Below are positions 1,653-28,041 of a stretch of DNA of 64,000 nt, one piece after another. The DNA is from an uncultured bacterium (GTDB lineage Bacteria; Omnitrophota; Omnitrophia; Omnitrophales; Abzuiibacteriaceae): assembly GCA_964387845.1 (NCBI GenBank), contig CAYLXA010000004.1, positions 128,001-192,000 of the forward strand. The letters run 5' to 3'. Position 1 is the stretch's first letter. Each line of letters starts with the position of its first letter. Made by a program: the position numbers and the translations under genes. Below the pieces are notes generated by a model. The model was not told the origin of the DNA and did no database searches. It saw only the letters and a program-made list of their open reading frames with translations.

Positions 1653-2777
1653 TTAAATCAGGCCTTTCAATCTTAACTCTTGAGTTGCAATGCCAAATCT
1701 GTCATCCGCCTTTTGAGATTGAGACCATTCAATAAGCTCTTGCATTCCCCGCGCAAAGTTCCAAGCCGGTTTAAAACCGAGCGTTTTCGTGATTTTTGAG
1801 ATATCGGAAAAACAGTGGCGAATATCGCCAGGCCGGAATTTCTTGGTGATTTCAGGGTCAATATTTTTACCCAGAAGGTTGGAAAGTTGCTGCGCGATTT
1901 CAAGAACAGAAATAGCTTTTCCGGTCCCGACATTGAAGGGCTGATAGTCAGCTTTGCTGCTTTCCAGCGCCAGGAGATTGGCGTTTGCAATGTCGTGGAC
2001 CGATACGAAATCGCGGGTCTGCAAACCGTCCTCGTAAATCACAGGGCGATTGCCATTTTTAAGACGGCTCAAAAAAATTGCAGCGACACCGGTGTAAGGA
2101 TTTGACAATGACTGGCGGGGGCCGTAAACATTGAAATAGCGAAGCGCTACCGCCGGAATTTTGTAGGTTTGGCCAATATTGAGAACCATTTCTTCCTGCG
2201 CTTTTTTTGTGAGCGCATAAATTGACGTGCAATCAAACGGTTTAGATTCAGATGTTCCAATCGGCTTGAGATTGCCCCCGCATTTTTGGCAAGGGACCTC
2301 CCAATTTCCAGATGTCATCGCTTTGTCGTCGCGGGCACCAGCAACGGCAGGGCCGCATTTGGGGCATTGGTAAGCTCCTTCGCCGTAGCAGCTCATAGAG
2401 CTCGCGACAATTATTTTTCTGATTCTGTCCCGATACTGATTGACGATTAAATCGAGCAGGTTGGCGGTTCCGCCAATATTAACATCGGTATAATGTTTGA
2501 CCTGATATTGAGATTGGCCGACACCTACCGCAGCAGCCTGATGGCATACAGCATCAATGCCGGCCAGTGCTTTTTTGAGCGATTCCGTGTCGTCAATATT
2601 ACCGCGGACATATTCAGCATTTGTATTGGCCCAGGCGGGCAGTTCCCCCGAATTGTGAACTTGAGGATCCAGATTGTCTAAAACTCTGACGTGGTAGCCC
2701 TTTGAAACCAAAAGGTCAACTATATGAGATCCAATAAAACCGCATCCGCCTGTTATTAGTATGTTTTTAACCGCCAC
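1653..2777 (-). CDS. NAD-dependent epimerase/dehydratase (extended SDR) with Cys4 zinc-ribbon insertion
   Basis: A Rossmann GxxGxxG (ILITGGCGFIGSHIV) and catalytic YxxxK (YALTK) are present. A roughly 40-aa insert CPKCG...CQKCGG lies between the Ser and YxxxK regions. Confidence 0.8.
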   Translation of the reverse strand: MAVKNILITGGCGFIGSHIVDLLVSKGYHVRVLDNLDPQVHNSGELPAWANTNAEYVRGNIDDTESLKKALAGIDAVCHQAAAVGVGQSQYQVKHYTDVNIGGTANLLDLIVNQYRDRIRKIIVASSMSCYGEGAYQCPKCGPAVAGARDDKAMTSGNWEVPCQKCGGNLKPIGTSESKPFDCTSIYALTKKAQEEMVLNIGQTYKIPAVALRYFNVYGPRQSLSNPYTGVAAIFLSRLKNGNRPVIYEDGLQTRDFVSVHDIANANLLALESSKADYQPFNVGTGKAISVLEIAQQLSNLLGKNIDPEITKKFRPGDIRHCFSDISKITKTLGFKPAWNFARGMQELIEWSQSQKADDRFGIATQELRLKGLI

Positions 2778-2789
2778 AGAGCCCCGCTT

Positions 2790-3830
2790 CTAGTGTTTGA
2801 ATAATCGGCGATTTTGATGTGCCCAGTCCACCAAACGTCCCACGCCCGTTTCGGGAGAAACGGATGGCTGCCAACCGATTAGTTTTTTAGCTTGTTGAAT
2901 GTTCGAAATGTATACTTTTTGGTCTGATGGACGCCAGTCGGAGAAGCGGATTTTGAGCCGGCCGGTTTTGGTTTGAAGCAAATCAAGCAATTCCAACAGC
3001 GAGAGCGTGAATTTAGAGCCTCCGCCGATGTTTAAAACCACGTGACGCTGCTTGCTTTTTAAAAACAAATCGTAGGCATGAATCAAATCGTCTACCCAAA
3101 GCACGTCGCGCACCTGCTTGCCGTTTCCATAAATAGTAATCGGCTGGCCGGTGAGCGCAGCAATGGCGAACCAGGATACCCAGCCCTGATCCTCAACGCC
3201 GAACTGCCGGGTTCCGTAAATACACGACATTCGGAAAACGCCGACTTTAAGTCCGTAAAGCCGCGCATAATCCTGCGCGTAAAGATCGGCTGTCAACTTT
3301 GAACATCCATAAGGCGTATGCTTGCACAAATCAACACCAAAATTTTCAGGGACGCCGTTTCGAAATTTCCCCGAGAAAACATAGCGGGTTTTTAGCTCCT
3401 TTATTCCGATCGTATTCACATTCTCGCCATATACTTTATTGGTCGAGCAAACCACGACAGCAGGTTTTGATTTGGATTGACGCGCTGCCTCCAGGACATG
3501 GAATGTGCCTGTGGCATTTACCCGAAAATCGGTGATCGGATCGAGGACAGATGAGGTGACGGCAGTTTGTCCTGCTGTATGAATAATGGCATCCGCATTT
3601 CTTGCAAGAGACTTAACGGTATCAAAATCTAAAATACTGCCTCGAACTCGTTTGATATTGGAAAACCGCGATAAATATTCCCAATTATAAGCAGCGCCCG
3701 TTTTTTTCTTTTTCATCAATTTTTCGCGTGAAAGATTATCGAGAGCTACGACAGAATGCTTTCTTTTTGCGTAATATTCGCACACGTGGCTTCCGACAAA
3801 TCCGCTGCCGCCTGTTACCAGAATTTTCAT
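2790..3830 (-). CDS. NAD-dependent epimerase/dehydratase (CDP-paratose 2-epimerase/Tyv-like SDR)
   Basis: MKILVTGGSGFVGSH...LDNLSR are Rossmann motifs. The start is placed at the internal ATG (MKIL) at 3830, abutting the upstream gene, because the 14-codon N-terminal extension of the track ORF lacks support. Confidence 0.75.
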   Translation of the reverse strand: MKILVTGGSGFVGSHVCEYYAKRKHSVVALDNLSREKLMKKKKTGAAYNWEYLSRFSNIKRVRGSILDFDTVKSLARNADAIIHTAGQTAVTSSVLDPITDFRVNATGTFHVLEAARQSKSKPAVVVCSTNKVYGENVNTIGIKELKTRYVFSGKFRNGVPENFGVDLCKHTPYGCSKLTADLYAQDYARLYGLKVGVFRMSCIYGTRQFGVEDQGWVSWFAIAALTGQPITIYGNGKQVRDVLWVDDLIHAYDLFLKSKQRHVVLNIGGGSKFTLSLLELLDLLQTKTGRLKIRFSDWRPSDQKVYISNIQQAKKLIGWQPSVSPETGVGRLVDWAHQNRRLFKH

Positions 3831-4597
3831 TTGGCTTCCTTCATTTTCTGAAAATTTGCATAAGCAGCACAAGTCGTTTCAATTGAGTTGTCCATAACTA
3901 ATTTCCCATTTTGAATTAAAAGCCCGCGCTTACAGTGTTTCTTTAGTTGTTCAGCCGAATGGGAAATTAAAATCAGCGTTCTGCCGGATTTTTTGATTTC
4001 CTCAAACTTGGCGTGGCATTTAGACTGAAAATGCTGGTCGCCGACTGCTAAAATTTCATCTGCAAGCAGAATATCAAAATTGGAATGAATGGCAACCGAA
4101 AAACCAAGCCGGACGTACATGCCGGAGGAATATTGCTTGATCGGGGAGTCTATGAATTGTTCGAGTTCTGAAAAAGCTACGATCTCGTCAATTTTTTGGG
4201 TAATTTCTTGTTTGGACATGCCAAGGATGACGCCATTTAAGAAAACATTCTCGCGTCCCGTCAGTTCCGGATGAAAACCGGCACCCACTTCAATCAAAGG
4301 CGCAATCCGCGCCGCCGCTAATACTTTTCCGCGCGTCGGTTTTGTTACATTGGCGATTAATTTCAGCACCGTTGTTTTTCCGGCACCGTTGGGGCCTAAA
4401 ATTCCGACCGATTCGCCCGGTTGAACGGCAAACGAAACATCACGGAGAGCAAAGAACCTCTCGTCCCGGACCGGGTTCCCGAGCAAGGTTTTCCACGCCC
4501 GGTCAATCCACCGGTTCATGCTGGTAGAAAGCGCCGAAAAGTTTTCACGCCTCAAACGATATTCTTTATCTACATGGTCAAATGTAATGACGGCCAT
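3827..4597 (-). CDS. ABC transporter ATP-binding protein, polysaccharide/O-antigen-type exporter (Wzt/TagH-like)
   Basis: Walker A GPNGAGKTT, an ABC signature (YSSGM) and Walker B LLADE are present. The start codon overlaps the stop of the Wzm-like permease. Confidence 0.8.
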   Translation of the reverse strand: MAVITFDHVDKEYRLRRENFSALSTSMNRWIDRAWKTLLGNPVRDERFFALRDVSFAVQPGESVGILGPNGAGKTTVLKLIANVTKPTRGKVLAAARIAPLIEVGAGFHPELTGRENVFLNGVILGMSKQEITQKIDEIVAFSELEQFIDSPIKQYSSGMYVRLGFSVAIHSNFDILLADEILAVGDQHFQSKCHAKFEEIKKSGRTLILISHSAEQLKKHCKRGLLIQNGKLVMDNSIETTCAAYANFQKMKEAK

Positions 4598-5380: not shown

Positions 5381-6526
5381 TTAATTTAACGCAGATTTTA
5401 GAATTGCCGACAAATCCCGGCTAAGGCAATTCAGGTTCGCATTTTGCTGATAAATTTGGTAGCCTTTTTCAGCTATTTTATCGGCAAGTTTGGGGTCGTT
5501 TTTCAAGGTAATAATCGCATGCGCAAGCTCCCCGGCATCGCCCGGGGTGACAAAATAAATGCTATCCATGTCGGTCAGCAGTTCTTCAACAGCTTTGGCG
5601 CGTCCCGTGACGACCGGTTTTTTGACGGCGAGAGCTTCGAAAATTTTATTCGGAATTACGCGGTTGCGTTTTTCTGAAGTTCCAAAAACGCCCAGGCATA
5701 AGTCGCTTTCCTGCAGCAGAGAAGGGACCTGGGCATAATCCATCCAGCCCCGAAGGCGCACATTGGCCATGTTGAGCTCTTTCACCTTTGCCTGCATTTC
5801 GTAGTAAAGCTGGCCGGTTCCGACAAGGTCAAAAGTAATATCGCGCTCTGTTTCCAATATTTTTGCCGCACCCAATATGACGTCGACGCCATGGAACGGC
5901 GTAAATTTCCCGCAGAAAACGACTCGGTAAAATTGGTCACGGCGTTTTGGCGCCGAAGGTTGAAATAGAGTGTCGTCAGCACCGATCCACAGCCGCGCGA
6001 AACGCTTTTCGGGAATCTGGAAATTATGCGAAAAATAGTCTATATGCTGCCGAGTATCCAAAATAATTTTATTGGCAAATTTGCAAGCAGTTTGATCAAT
6101 TTCCCGAATCAGTGCGGCAAACAGCGATTTTTCCGAGATGAGTTTTCGGTCGTTCACGATTGTATCGTATAAAGAAATGAAAGCGTCAAATACGATCCTC
6201 TTGCGGCGCAGAAACGTCAGCCATTTAACGGCTAGAACGTCGAGATGGCCCGGAAAGCCGATCAGCACCAAATCATGATTTTGGATAAACAGGTACCGCC
6301 ACATCAATTGAAGATTGGTAATCAAGATCTTAACGATCCGCCGAATCATTTTCCAGATACTTTTAAACTCTCCGGTTTTATGTTCTTCCGAATCCCATAA
6401 AGGTGCGTGGCACTCGATCACTTCGATTTGAGCTGCTTGCATGGTTTTCAGGAGTGTCTGATTTCGGGGATAATTTCGCTCGTAAGTCCCAAAAAAACAA
6501 ACGCGCATATTATTCCGATTCTTCAA
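5381..6526 (-). CDS. glycosyltransferase family 4 (GT-B, retaining)
   Basis: A 381-aa protein with a C-terminal GT1/GT4-like region (E..G.PVV..R motif neighbourhood). The start may instead be the second Met (MRVCFFG, about 6508). Confidence 0.7.
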   Translation of the reverse strand: MKNRNNMRVCFFGTYERNYPRNQTLLKTMQAAQIEVIECHAPLWDSEEHKTGEFKSIWKMIRRIVKILITNLQLMWRYLFIQNHDLVLIGFPGHLDVLAVKWLTFLRRKRIVFDAFISLYDTIVNDRKLISEKSLFAALIREIDQTACKFANKIILDTRQHIDYFSHNFQIPEKRFARLWIGADDTLFQPSAPKRRDQFYRVVFCGKFTPFHGVDVILGAAKILETERDITFDLVGTGQLYYEMQAKVKELNMANVRLRGWMDYAQVPSLLQESDLCLGVFGTSEKRNRVIPNKIFEALAVKKPVVTGRAKAVEELLTDMDSIYFVTPGDAGELAHAIITLKNDPKLADKIAEKGYQIYQQNANLNCLSRDLSAILKSALN

Positions 6527-24503: not shown

Positions 24504-25514
24504 ATGAAACTCAAGCAAATCATCGTTCTCACTTTCATTTTAGCGATTCTCGCAGCCATGATTGTGTGGAAAAATTCCCGGAAATCAGAATTTGTTTACC
24601 AGCAAGAGTCGACAAGCCTGGAAGTTGGTTTAGAACCAGCCCTTGCGACGGCGGTCAGAATCAAAAAGCAAGATTCGGAAATTAATATTGGGAAAGAAGG
24701 TGATGCTTGGAGAGTTGCAAGCCGTTTTAACGCAAAAGCCGACGCCAATAAAGTGCGCCAGCTATTAGAGGTTGTTTCTGATCTGAGCGGAGAATTTCGG
24801 AGTAATGACGCCGCGCTGCTTTCTGATTATGAAATCGAGAACGAGAAAGCTCTGCGGATCGAAATCGTGCAAAATGACGGAAAAAACGCGGTGCTTTTGA
24901 TCGGTCTCGCGAGGCCCGATCAGCGCGGAATTTTTCTTCGCTTAGAAAATTCAAACGCTGTTTATTTATCCAACGATCAGCTGCTTGTCAATATGGGCCT
25001 TTACGGCGATCTTGTGCGCGAAAATCCAAAAGCTGATTTCTGGATTGATTTCAGATTGTTGGATTTAGAAATTGATTCAGTTTCGTCAATCACACTGATT
25101 CAGTCAAAGGATGGAAAAGAAAATATTATTTTCAGCCTTGAAAAAGCCGCGGATGTTCAAAATCCTGCTCTTGCGACGTGGAAAATGAAAGATGCGCCCG
25201 AATCTTTCATGGTGGATGAAAGCAAGGTAAAAACCTATCTGCATAAATTTCAATTTGAACGCGCCAAAGAAATATTGGATCCGGCGGGGCAATATGGGCT
25301 CGAAAACCCTGACTTCAAATTAGTGTTTGGGCTAGCGGACGGTGCTCAAAAAGTAATGGTGTTTAAGAAACAGGGTCCTGAAGCAGGCGACCAGGCCGTT
25401 TCCGTTTTGGGCGAGCCGGACGTTAAATTAATTACCGCCACAGTTTTCAACTCGTTCCAGGCCACCGTAGATTTTTTCAAACAGGAAGAAGTTCAAGAAA
25501 ATCCTTCGCCTTAA
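24504..25514 (+). CDS. DUF4340 domain protein (GldG-associated)
   Basis: An N-terminal TM anchor. DUF4340 genes characteristically follow GldG-like genes. Confidence 0.6.
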   Translation: MKLKQIIVLTFILAILAAMIVWKNSRKSEFVYQQESTSLEVGLEPALATAVRIKKQDSEINIGKEGDAWRVASRFNAKADANKVRQLLEVVSDLSGEFRSNDAALLSDYEIENEKALRIEIVQNDGKNAVLLIGLARPDQRGIFLRLENSNAVYLSNDQLLVNMGLYGDLVRENPKADFWIDFRLLDLEIDSVSSITLIQSKDGKENIIFSLEKAADVQNPALATWKMKDAPESFMVDESKVKTYLHKFQFERAKEILDPAGQYGLENPDFKLVFGLADGAQKVMVFKKQGPEAGDQAVSVLGEPDVKLITATVFNSFQATVDFFKQEEVQENPSP

Positions 25515-25631
25515 ATTTCAATTGTCTGCCTAAAAGTCTCCTGATAAACTACGCACTCTAGTTTTAAGGGGTAAGTGTTAAGTGGTAAGAAAAACTTATC
25601 ACTTACAACTTATCTCTTACTGCTTAATCAT

Positions 25632-25704
25632 GCGCCGATAGCTCAGCTGGTAGAGCAAGTGACTCTTAATCACTGGGTCGTAGGTTCGATCCCTACTCGG
25701 CGCA
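25632..25704 (+). tRNA. tRNA-Lys (CTT)
   Basis: Acceptor stem gcgccga / tcggcgc, anticodon loop ctCTTaa, T arm ggttcgatcc. 73 nt. Confidence 0.9.
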
Positions 25705-26032
25705 TTGTTTTAATTTGGCCTCAAGCTTATATGCAATGAACGAGACTTCTTCGGCGCTCAAACAGTCCTCGGCATCTTTATATTGATTGAAGTGTTGATA
25801 GTTGATGTCTGCGGAACTCGCGGCGAAGAAGTCTCATTCATTGTTTTGTTATCCTTGTGAGGTTAAATCAAAACAATGCGAATAAGGGATCGAAGGGAGC
25901 AGCCGAGCCAAATAAATGGAGATGCGACGTCTAGGAGCATCGACTTCTTTACGAGGCTGCGGCTGACCGACCGAAGGCGAATAGCTGAATAATTTGCAGA
26001 GCAAATTATGAAGCTGCTATGAGCAGGAGGCG

Positions 26033-26051
26033 TCGATCCCTACTCGGCGCA
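26033..26051 (+). repeat. 19-bp exact direct repeat of the tRNA-Lys 3' end (tcgatccctactcggcgca), 328 bp downstream of the gene
   Basis: It is identical to 25686-25704, and the flanks are also similar (cgca-ttgttttaattt versus cgca-gttttattttt). Confidence 0.8.
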
Positions 26052-26081
26052 GTTTTATTTTTGCTGGATGGTGAGTTTGAA

Positions 26082-26163
26082 TGCGACAGGAGGGAGTTGA
26101 ACCCCCACCCCTTACGGGACAAGATCCTAAGTCTTGCGCGTCTGCCAGTTTCGCCACTGTCGC
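26082..26163 (-). tRNA. tRNA-Leu (TAG), class II with long variable arm
   Basis: The reverse complement reads gcgacag tggcgaaactggcag..., with anticodon loop ctTAGga, a variable arm tcccgtaaggggt and T arm ggttcaactcc. 82 nt. Confidence 0.85.
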
Positions 26164-26490
26164 AAATTGAAGAATATTATAGGAAAGTTGCAGTTCACGC
26201 AAGGTTGAACCAGATTGTATGGATGATTTGAAGCAATCTCAAGATAGCCTGCCATCTGAAGATCCAAACAATTCTGCAACCGCTCTTCTGGTCGTTGGTA
26301 TCCTGATCGTTGTTCTGAGTTCTGCCGCCCTTGCTTTTTTCCTGTATTCCAAGATCACCCACGGATCTTGACTGCTTACTGTTTATCCTTGCGGAATATC
26401 TTAAAATCACTATAATAGTCAGGTTCTGCGCTAGTCCTAAATTCATCGTTGTAAATCATTTAGGTCGGATTTGCTTTGTTTCATTTAGTT

Positions 26491-26577
26491 AATATGCGAG
26501 CGTAGCTCAACGGTAGCCCTGATTTACCATAGATGAACAATTGGTTTATTAATCAGAAATCAGGACAACCGTTGAGC
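26491..26577. repeat. Duplicated 26-bp tRNA-Gly 5' fragment (pseudo-tRNA) forming a long imperfect hairpin with an inverted copy
   Basis: 26491-26516 equals 26632-26657 (aatatgcgagcgtagctcaacggtag). 26505-26525 pairs with 26557-26577 at 18 of 21 bp. Confidence 0.7.
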
Positions 26578-26636
26578 TTCTCATTGATTCAATTTAACAG
26601 GCAGTCAGATCAAATATTATGAAGTAAAAGGAATAT

Positions 26637-26711
26637 GCGAGCGTAGCTCAACGGTAGAGCACTTCCTTGCCAAGGAAGATGTTGTGGGTTCAAATCCCAT
26701 CGCTCGCTCCA
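26637..26711 (+). tRNA. tRNA-Gly (GCC), CCA encoded
   Basis: Acceptor stem gcgagcg, anticodon loop ttGCCaa, T arm ggttcaaatcc, and it ends in cca. Confidence 0.9.
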
Positions 26712-26760
26712 ATTTTTTAGATGGTTTATGTTAAATCTTCTCGAAAGGCAAAAACAGGCT

Positions 26761-28041
26761 ATGAGTAAAGTTTCCGTTAAAGATATCAGTTCATGCGAAA
26801 AAGTTTTGACCATCCAGGTCCCCCAAGCGGATGTCCAAAAAGAATACGACCATGTTTACGATCATTTGGGAAAACATGTAAAAGTTCCGGGTTTCCGGCC
26901 GGGAAAAGCACCGAAAGACATTCTGGCGATGCGCTTCAAAAATGAGGCTACTGAGAAAGTCGTTTCAAACCTTATCTCAAATTCCTTGCGCGAAGCGCTC
27001 ACGTCAAAGGAAATTTTTCCGATTGGCTCTCCGGTTGTCCAAAAAGTAAAATTTGAGAAGGACGAACTTTCGTATGAAGCGCTGATTGATATCAAACCCA
27101 AAATCAAATTGGGTAAGTATAAAGGCCTTGAAGCCAAGCAAAAGCCGCTTCAGGTTGAAGAGTCTGAAGTGAATGATATTTTAAAGCGTATTCAGGAAAC
27201 GCACGTACGCCTGACGCCCGTTGCGGACCGCCCGGCGCAGATCGGCGATATTTTGTCTTGCGATTATAAGTTGCTCGTGGATGGCAAAGAAGAGGAACAC
27301 CGGGAAGAAGATGTGATCGAGCTTCGCGAAAAGGATTATTTCGAAGGATTTTCCGGGCAGCTTGTGGGCATCAAGCCGGGCGAGACGCGCGATGTGAAAA
27401 TTAAATTTCCGGAACAGTTCGCGAAAAAGGAATGGATCGGAAAAGAAGGTATTTACCAAGTGACCGCGAAGGAAATCAAAACCAAACAGCTTCCGGAGTT
27501 AAATGATGATTTGGCCAAAGAAGCCGGGGAGTTTGATACGTTGGATGCTTTGAAAAAGAAAATCCGCGATGAATTTGAAGCCAAGAAAAAACAGGAAATT
27601 GAGGAAGAAACCAAAGATCAGCTTCTGAAAGAAGTTTTGAAAAATTCAAAGTTTGAAATTCCGAAGCGCCTTGTCGAAACACGGCTTGAATCTTTGGTTA
27701 AAAAAGGTGTTGAATCAATCAAGTCCCAAGGCATGAAAGAAGAGGATGCGCTCAAGAAGCAAGACGAACTTCGCGAAAAGCTCCGAGAGGCAGCCGATCG
27801 CGATGTCCGGCTGTCTTTCATTTTGCACGAAATTACGACAAGCGAAAAAATCACGGCAGCTCCGGATGATTTCAAGGCACGCTACGCCTCAATTTCCGAG
27901 TGGGTCCGCCAGCCGCTTGCGGAAGTCGAGAAATATTACGAATCGCATCCGGAACAGAAAGAGTCGCTCGAAATCCAGATCATCAATGAGAAAGCGGTTC
28001 AGCTCATTCGCGATCAGGCGAACATTAAAATAACGTCTTAA
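26761..28041 (+). CDS. tig: trigger factor
   Basis: The TF N-terminal ribosome-binding region (GFRPGKAP) and an FKBP-like PPIase middle domain. The start is at MSKVS rather than the longer track ORF that begins inside the tRNA-Gly flank. Confidence 0.9.

Follow-up and report, generated by a model that had tools for sequence, protein, structure and literature searches.

What left a second copy of a tRNA-Lys end 328 bp downstream of the gene, behind DNA that encodes nothing? The question is raised by a 64,000-nt stretch of an uncultured Omnitrophota bacterium (contig CAYLXA010000004.1, positions 128,001 to 192,000; hereafter the window), in which the last 19 nucleotides of an intact tRNA-Lys(CTT) gene recur on the far side of a short segment. 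We favour, tentatively and at a little short of an even chance, the reading of this segment as a site-specific integration module that has decayed or is a miniature, an attL/attR scar resembling a cis-mobilizable element (CIME). We infer this recombinase-mediated origin because the edges of the repeat lie on tRNA landmarks, all copies of the site start at one left edge, relatives have an empty site and the flank of the second copy looks ancestral. Integration-derived tRNA fragments are pervasive in prokaryotes, and integration is the commonest source of tRNA fragments (PMC9897764). An att-type tRNA fragment around a gene-less remnant, as found here, is most likely a scar of this common kind, unusual in being so small and in containing a long hairpin in which the tRNA end recurs a third time, inverted.

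The 19-mer TCGATCCCTACTCGGCGCA occurs at exactly two sites in the window, copy 1 inside the tRNA-Lys gene and copy 2 beyond the segment (Table), and no third match was found in the window on either strand with up to three mismatches. By chance a mean of 0.01 matches is expected, and two or more matches were seen in none of 100 shuffles of the window, so the exact recurrence described in an earlier note on this DNA is borne out. Copy 1 begins at position 55, in the T-loop, and stops at the discriminator A73, exactly the last base of the tRNA. Integration repeats reportedly start in the anticodon loop, in the T-loop or near the 3' end and run to the end of the tRNA. The earlier note had also described the bases flanking the two copies as similar; these are short T-rich strings (TTGTTTTAATTT versus GTTTTATTTTT), and their likeness is visible by eye but statistically uninformative. 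The tRNA-Lys gene itself is 100% identical to that of the related locus L010. Copy 2 together with 8 nt of its right flank corresponds to the native tRNA-Lys end and flank of the related locus L015 at 27 of 28 positions, and the flank of copy 2 aligns better than that of copy 1 in three of four relatives, a weak signal given that the flanks are short and T-rich. This likeness fits, weakly, with the view that copy 2 was once the 3' end of the gene and has been displaced (attR).

To establish the state of this site in relatives, syntenic loci were recovered by exact-protein look-ups; searches with trigger factor (Tig) in species-representative genomes and metagenomes returned only proteins 26-33% identical at unrelated loci. 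The nearest named homologues of the window genes belong to Candidatus Omnitrophica. The segment is absent from L010, L012, L015 and L027, all from uncultured Omnitrophota, where the site is empty. The plus-strand tRNA-Leu gene follows tRNA-Lys after 20 nt in L010 and after 232 nt of unrelated sequence in L027, and a 5' fragment of tRNA-Leu follows after 12 nt in L012 and 24 nt in L015. No second tRNA-Lys end is present at any of these four loci. The closest relative, L032, shares its 95.1% identity with the window only from position 26273 rightwards, inside a small open reading frame (ORF), and nothing collinear lies to the left of that position. Because collinearity with L032 begins only there, the 568-bp block that holds the tRNA-Lys segment is, as judged from this comparison, remodelled or replaced in the lineage of the window. 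Within the block, tRNA-Leu(TAG) lies on the minus strand in the window only; it lies on the plus strand in L010, L012, L027 and L032, in the last of these directly 5' of the small ORF.

Table. Features of the tRNA-Lys locus and related loci (positions refer to the window unless a locus is named)
Feature	Position	Strand	Remarks
tRNA-Lys(CTT), intact	25632..25704	+	Rfam tRNA 71.9 bits; ARAGORN adds 1 base on each side
Direct repeat copy 1 (attL-like core)	25686..25704	+	exact 19-mer, tRNA positions 55-73
Direct repeat copy 2 (attR-like core)	26033..26051	+	exact 19-mer
Quasi-palindrome, ~210 nt	25685..25894	.	left arm 25685-25757, apical part 25758-25819, right arm 25820-25894
Third tRNA-Lys end copy, inverted, decayed, with 19 nt of downstream flank	25858..25894	-	reverse complement TTCGATCCCTtattCGCATTGTTTTGATTTAACCTCA
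Unique segment D, 138 nt	25895..26032	+	two local hairpins, ~25899-25968 and 25983-26015; RNA fold z -2.45
Terminator-like hairpin GCGTCGA-TCCCTAC-TCGGCGC + AGTTTTATTT	26030..26060	+	consensus scan; hairpin 26030-26050; putative function
T-rich spacer, 30 nt, from copy 2 to inverted tRNA-Leu	26052..26081	+	
tRNA-Leu(TAG)	26082..26163	-	ARAGORN; reverse-strand BLAST matches to L010, L012, L027, L032
Block without collinear homology to closest relative L032	25705..26272	.	568 bp; only the inverted tRNA-Leu matches
tRNA-Leu(TAG) fragments, L012	5131-5151, 5412-5423, 5527-5561		
tRNA-Leu(TAG) fragment, L015	9098-9119		
tRNA-Leu(TAG) fragments, L027	~3935-3952, 4222-4284		
tRNA-Leu(TAG) fragment, L029	4694-4710		
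Loci L009 and L014			same genome, independent assembly; 100% identical to window
Locus L032			identical ClpP; 95.1% nucleotide identity to window
Locus L010			tig 88% identical
Loci L011 and L015			tig 83% identical
Locus L012			tig 80% identical
Loci L027 and L028			tig 51% identical
Loci L029 and L030			tig 50% identical

The whole unit with copy 2, 25705-26051, measures 347 bp, and the interior between the two copies, 25705-26032, measures 328 bp. The interior holds no ORF longer than 51 amino acids and none with a Pfam or PHROG match at E≤1, in agreement with the earlier note, which had called it ORF-less, and no foreign cargo was found in it. An Rfam scan of 25000-27000 gave nothing with a meaningful score beyond three tRNAs; in the bracketed segment it returned only sub-threshold chance matches to microRNA precursors and the DnaX frameshift element (E≥0.35). 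No second copy of the segment exists in the window or at related loci. Its right-hand part, the 138-nt segment D, likewise occurs only once in the window and is missing from every fetched locus, and neither D nor the 62-nt apical part of the quasi-palindrome described below has a local source on either strand. Segment D was also considered as a decayed tRNA-Leu or tRNA-Lys; Smith-Waterman alignments on both strands were no better than shuffles. A break between contigs of the Logan assembly of the same sample at 25908-25934 was considered as a sign of a repeat or invertible segment and is read instead as a probable coverage gap, since the overlap of 27 nt would fall short of the k-1 = 30 nt common to adjacent pieces if Logan assembles with k = 31, an assumption under which about three consecutive k-mers are missing.

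The left-hand part of the segment forms a structure larger than had been noticed. The earlier note had reported an internal inverted repeat of 14-16 bp at about 25738-25815; this repeat exists but is only the inner part of a quasi-palindrome of about 210 nt, whose arms of about 75 nt can be aligned with few indels. Its inner arms of 24 nt (25734-25757 and 25820-25843) are 92% complementary, the middle arms that enclose them (25701-25723 and 25858-25880) 87%, and the outer arms (25685-25694 and 25885-25894) are complementary at 10 of 10 positions. Folded as DNA, the palindrome reaches -48 kcal/mol (z -8.4), a value that none of 200 shuffles equalled. The left arm starts in the T-loop of tRNA-Lys, one base 5' of the direct repeat, and the right arm thus ends in a third copy of the tRNA-Lys end, inverted and decayed, in which the 10/10 match TTCGATCCCT/AGGGATCGAA keeps the register of the 23-nt arm. 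The left edge, at 25685/25686, is common to the three copies of the site. The order of parts is therefore copy 1 within the intact tRNA, loop, inverted site, segment D and copy 2. The inclusion of the tRNA end in the hairpin and its third, inverted copy had escaped the earlier account, as had the inversion of tRNA-Leu and the other combinations of tRNA fragments with hairpins described below.

Copy 2 and the three bases that precede it can form a 7-bp hairpin that is followed by AGTTTTATTT; a GC-rich hairpin and a T-run, the arrangement of an intrinsic terminator, are thus found at 26030-26050 and immediately beyond. Since terminator-like sites in this region are not more frequent than expected from shuffles, a terminator function is only putative. 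Judged from these motifs, transcription of tRNA-Lys probably continues through the segment, as a 3' trailer, and stops at the hairpin and T-run of copy 2. On the integration reading, DNA would have entered the part of tRNA-Lys(CTT) from the T-loop to the 3' end by site-specific recombination. Copy 1 would complete the working tRNA (attL), and copy 2 would be the displaced original 3' end (attR), with a T-rich flank like that behind tRNA-Lys in relatives. All coding content would then have been lost; the 210-nt quasi-palindrome next to attL and the 138 nt of segment D would be what is left, and the present role is probably passive, as the tRNA-Lys 3' trailer. Excision would join tRNA-Lys ...GCGCA directly to GTTTTATTTTTGCTGG in an attB-type junction, and the excised circle would carry the junction ...GGAGGCG-[19-mer]-TTGTTTTAATTTGG. 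With no recombinase nearby, the segment would not be mobile by itself.

Combinations of a tRNA fragment and a hairpin also occur at other tRNA genes of these loci. At tRNA-Gly in the window, an exact 26-nt direct repeat (26491-26516 and 26632-26657) brackets a 141-nt unit; the repeat consists of 5 nt of upstream sequence and tRNA positions 1-21, so its right edge falls in the D-loop. A hairpin in this unit (26504-26578) pairs tRNA-derived D-arm bases with an inverted copy of them, and the order of site, loop, inverted site, rest and site is found at both tRNA-Lys and tRNA-Gly. The tRNA-Gly module is present in L032 (354-515), L010 (2740-2896), L027/L028 (L027 4405-4537) and L029/L030 (L029 4801-4913) and is absent from L011 and L012; it thus spans lineages in which trigger factor is only 50% identical. 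Across five lineages its 19-pair stem is 90% paired and six pairs have changed on both sides. None of 500 shuffles reached the observed value, slid controls were 21-45% paired, and the loop motif TTACCAYAAAG is conserved. The module may serve the tRNA-Gly-tig-clpP unit as a structured leader, or it may stem from an old insertion. In the window the fragment is identical to the tRNA at 26 of 26 positions, whereas in L032 and L010 it has diverged (GCGAGCGTAGCGAAACGGCA...), which indicates that gene conversion or replacement renews exact repeats. A block upstream of the module at 26386-26429, CTTGCGGAATATCTTAAAATCACTATAATAGTCAGG (TTGCGG-16-TATAAT), is highly conserved (98% identical to L010) and is probably the promoter of the tRNA-Gly/tig unit.

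Fragments of tRNA-Leu(TAG) lie around the intact gene in several relatives. Upstream of it, 5' fragments ending at D-loop position 21/22 are found in L012 and L015, and a degenerate 5' fragment (GGATGGAATTGGCAG) can be seen by eye in L027 without a BLAST match. Downstream of it, 3' fragments occur in L012 and L027. L012 and L027 have CAGTACTGACTTC in common in the inserts that precede tRNA-Leu, with an alignment score that none of 2000 shuffles reached. In L033, a more distant locus reached via an integrase and described below, a 33-nt direct repeat (24 nt of upstream sequence and tRNA-Val positions 1-9; 5739-5899) lies 5' of tRNA-Val(GAC), with a perfect 8-bp hairpin between its copies. As a control, Pelagibacter loci showed no such tRNA fragments, and tRNA-Phe and tRNA-Arg of the window have no partial copies.

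We then asked which recombinases are associated with tRNA genes in this group. L027 (Candidatus Omnitrophica CG12_big_fil) encodes a 393-aa tyrosine integrase (PF00589, 1e-28) and two HTH_17/AlpA-like genes, and this islet (1977-3704) ends 6 nt before the 5' end of tRNA-Lys(CTT) (3710-3784). The contig of L028, from another sample, breaks exactly at that tRNA-Lys end (L028 1-73). This suggests that in L027 an element is joined to the 5' side of tRNA-Lys, with its far end off the contig. L033 was selected through an integrase 46% identical to that of L027; here the integrase, an HTH_17 gene and three small ORFs make up a 2-kb islet that abuts the 3' end of tRNA-Val, and a direct repeat at the far end of the islet was looked for and not found. 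Small integrase islets next to tRNA genes are therefore seen in both L027 and L033, neither with the 19-bp att core; their occurrence beside tRNA genes counts in favour of the integration reading. The integrase hidden Markov model (HMM) used for searching drew on 80 homologues of the L027 integrase, several of them source-labelled Omnitrophica or Omnitrophota, and a search of viral sequences with the integrase alignment yielded distant matches only.

Among known systems, the segment most resembles CIMEs, a defined class of elements that keep attL and attR and have lost their genes (2017 review, PMC5704250), and two att-like sites without integration or transfer genes are what is found here. 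Further points of likeness are the direct repeats of the target 3' end at the borders, the absence of recombinase and transfer genes and the location at a tRNA-Lys 3' end, a target of integration also described in streptococci (2017 review, PMC5704250). The segment differs from CIMEs in measuring only 347 bp, in the inverted third att copy inside a long palindrome, and in that phage, plasmid and viral collections yielded no autonomous relative with this att core. Described CIMEs are reportedly kilobase-sized. The segment also shares with the attR fragments left by prophages and islands a 3'-terminal tRNA fragment in the same orientation, downstream of the intact gene and starting in a loop. 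Documented cases of this type bracket about 9-120 kb of foreign DNA including an integrase (van der Gulik et al. 2023, PMC9897764), whereas the repeat in the window brackets only 328 non-coding bp. Terminal inverted repeats directly flanked by a short target duplication, as in a miniature inverted-repeat transposable element, are not seen: the target tRNA is itself part of the palindrome arms, ACTCGG and AATAAG just outside the arms show no duplication, and 138 nt separate the right arm from the second repeat copy. Such elements usually occur in many copies per genome; within the window and the related loci this is the only one.

The marks by which an integrated island is recognised are thus divided. 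Both borders carry a tRNA 3' segment in direct orientation, this repeat starts in the T-loop, and related sites are unoccupied, while an integrase gene inside and foreign composition or cargo are missing. Several observations weigh against an integration scar. The integrase HMM detected no tyrosine recombinase in the window, and neither an integrase nor a gene remnant lies inside the segment; the integrase of L027 stands on the 5' side of tRNA-Lys, opposite to the repeat in the window. A BLAST search of the interior, which the earlier note had proposed, gave no blastn match in phages or plasmids and no match in any fetched related locus, and no exact match to 19-28-mers of the segment was found in viral contigs, where the 19-mer itself is missing from 2.9 million contigs. 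The GC content of the segment (0.42-0.50) is not distinctive against that of its surroundings (0.40-0.47). The note had also proposed to look for related tRNA-Lys loci that carry a full island between the repeats; among the relatives examined, none has an island on the 3' side of tRNA-Lys. The order to the right of copy 2 is not ancestral, tRNA-Leu being inverted, and a simple scar should not hold the att segment a third time in inverted form. Finally, the renewal of repeats seen at tRNA-Gly means that the perfect tRNA-Lys repeat tells nothing about its age. What the earlier note had called the hallmark of integration into a tRNA 3' end is therefore upheld by the anatomy of the repeat, the empty sites and the lack of anything coding, but not by an island or an integrase.

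A local duplication, with no island in any relative, was the scenario that the earlier note had named as refuting integration, and we retain it as the main alternative, in itself unlikely but to be taken seriously. Template switching (a fold-back inverted duplication) at the tRNA-Lys 3' end would have rearranged the locus without a mobile element, the same episode would have inverted tRNA-Leu, and gene conversion from the tRNA would later have made copy 2 exact. Template switching is known to produce inverted duplications of the type duplication-triplication/inversion-duplication (DUP-TRP/INV-DUP) and to give rise to RNA hairpins. The tRNA-Lys locus shares with them the direct-inverted-direct arrangement, each copy having some flank beyond the tRNA, and a near-perfect hairpin derived from adjacent sequence. 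The inversion of tRNA-Leu within the same 568-bp block, the gene conversion of the tRNA-Gly fragment in the same lineage (window versus L032), the lack of a recombinase, cargo or foreign match, and the recurrence of tRNA fragments with hairpins, clade-wide at tRNA-Gly and tRNA-Leu and at tRNA-Val in L033, all argue for such a rearrangement. It leaves the 138 nt of segment D and the apical 62 nt without a local template, however, and it predicts that the sequence of the left arm should be repeated after copy 2, which is not seen. The edges of the repeat, moreover, fall on tRNA landmarks, the T-loop and the discriminator base, and not at arbitrary positions.

The likeness between the tRNA-Lys and tRNA-Gly modules could also point to a family of mobile hairpins, an improbable reading which we base on analogy. 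Here, ORF-less hairpin modules of a so far undescribed Omnitrophota family would insert into tRNA loops via a folded single-stranded att site, targeting the T-loop of tRNA-Lys and the D-loop of tRNA-Gly and tRNA-Leu; the stem would contain an inverted copy of the target, and the module would carry the part of the tRNA that it replaces and so keep the tRNA intact. Folded single-stranded recombination sites are used by XerCD at attP(+) of CTXphi and by IntI at integron attC sites, and the putative modules would be their tRNA-directed analogue. As in these systems, a direct site is followed by a loop, an inverted site, the remainder and a direct site again, an order predicted, on the models of these systems, by exchange of one strand in the stem of a circle that bears a hairpin. 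Both stems consist of a paired tRNA-derived 10-bp segment, an irregular middle and a second paired segment, and fragment edges fall repeatedly at D-loop position 21. Conservation of structure over sequence is seen for the tRNA-Gly module alone, through the shape kept in five lineages with its double-sided changes. The target is a tRNA gene and not dif or attI, and the repeats are 19-26 nt instead of 7 nt. The attC cores RYYYAAC/GTTRRRY are absent from the base of the tRNA-Lys hairpin (TTCGATC / GATCGAA), and the window has neither IntI nor another tyrosine recombinase. A search by eye for dif-like or attC-like motifs in this hairpin turned up only the hexamer GCGCAT, whose resemblance to dif is not meaningful. 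Of the traits of an integrative mobile element exploiting Xer (IMEX) or of a CTXphi-like folded attP, the order of parts alone is found, the target being a tRNA 3' end and not dif with XerC/XerD. The tRNA-Lys module has no homologue with which it could be compared, no second copy lies in the window and no polymorphism was seen. The tRNA-Gly module looks vertically inherited and, with its conserved loop motif, could be a functional leader RNA, and arms can also co-vary through template-switch correction without selection. To a function as RNA, which the earlier note had listed as a structured RNA, we likewise give a slim chance: the segment would be transcribed together with tRNA-Lys as a small RNA or a structured 3' trailer, and its inverted copy could pair with the tRNA end or with copy 2 in a terminator/antiterminator-like switch. 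3'ETS-leuZ of E. coli is the 3' external transcribed spacer of a tRNA operon, and the likeness to it would be one of working only, as a non-coding tRNA trailer that ends at an intrinsic terminator. The stretch of tRNA and trailer has a fold far stronger than that of shuffles (z -8.1), a 7-bp hairpin before a T-run is formed by copy 2, and segment D contains local hairpins. The strong fold, however, follows trivially from the repeat and the palindrome in the DNA, no Rfam match is meaningful, and every relative that has kept the locus lacks the segment, so that conservation lends the structured RNA no support.

If the segment is an integration scar, it matters little in itself: a further tRNA fragment of the attR type, it would serve mainly to mark the tRNA cluster as a hotspot of integration and rearrangement in a poorly known phylum and to call for caution in tRNA annotation. 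If the hairpin architecture is intrinsic, it would represent either a new structured leader built from a tRNA fragment or a new way for very small elements to land in tRNA genes. The conserved tRNA-fragment and hairpin modules at tRNA-Gly and tRNA-Leu may merit a separate study.

In the window the segment is preceded by an ATP-binding cassette (ABC) transporter auxiliary gene and a DUF4340 gene upstream of tRNA-Lys, and is followed by tRNA-Leu, the small ORF, tRNA-Gly, tig, clpP and an aminotransferase gene. The 30-nt spacer between copy 2 and tRNA-Leu (26052-26081) bears a weak, marginal likeness to two other sequences: the 3' flank of tRNA-Leu in L032, with p~0.015, and the beginning of the small ORF, with p~0.027. 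Neither the right flank of copy 2 nor 26164-26230 could be matched significantly to the tRNA-Leu flanks of L010, L011 and L012, and the reverse complement of 26164-26218 showed no significant similarity to the inserts that L012 and L027 carry ahead of tRNA-Leu. The possibility that the tRNA-Leu of the window is a foreign allele was weakened by another acceptor-stem variant in L032 and a 97%-identical copy in L029, which indicate that tRNA-Leu evolves fast in this clade. The small ORF (50 aa, 26219-26371) encodes a hydrophobic core, and its position and C-terminal sequence are conserved in L010, L011, L012 and L032; its first ~18 codons differ wholly from L032 despite 95% identity downstream.

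On the 5' side of tRNA-Lys lies a conserved promoter-like block (25522-25550, TTGTCT-17-TAAACT). A lineage-specific insert of ~61-77 nt (25553-25629) separates this block from the tRNA gene and is absent from L010, L012 and L015; it holds a hairpin with arms at 25565-25583 and 25594-25612, and a 14-nt unit is repeated in tandem at 25593-25620. In L010, an insert of ~110 nt with two hairpins (2560-2670), absent from the window and L012, lies 3' of a conserved promoter. Small hairpin inserts thus appear to be common in these intergenic regions.

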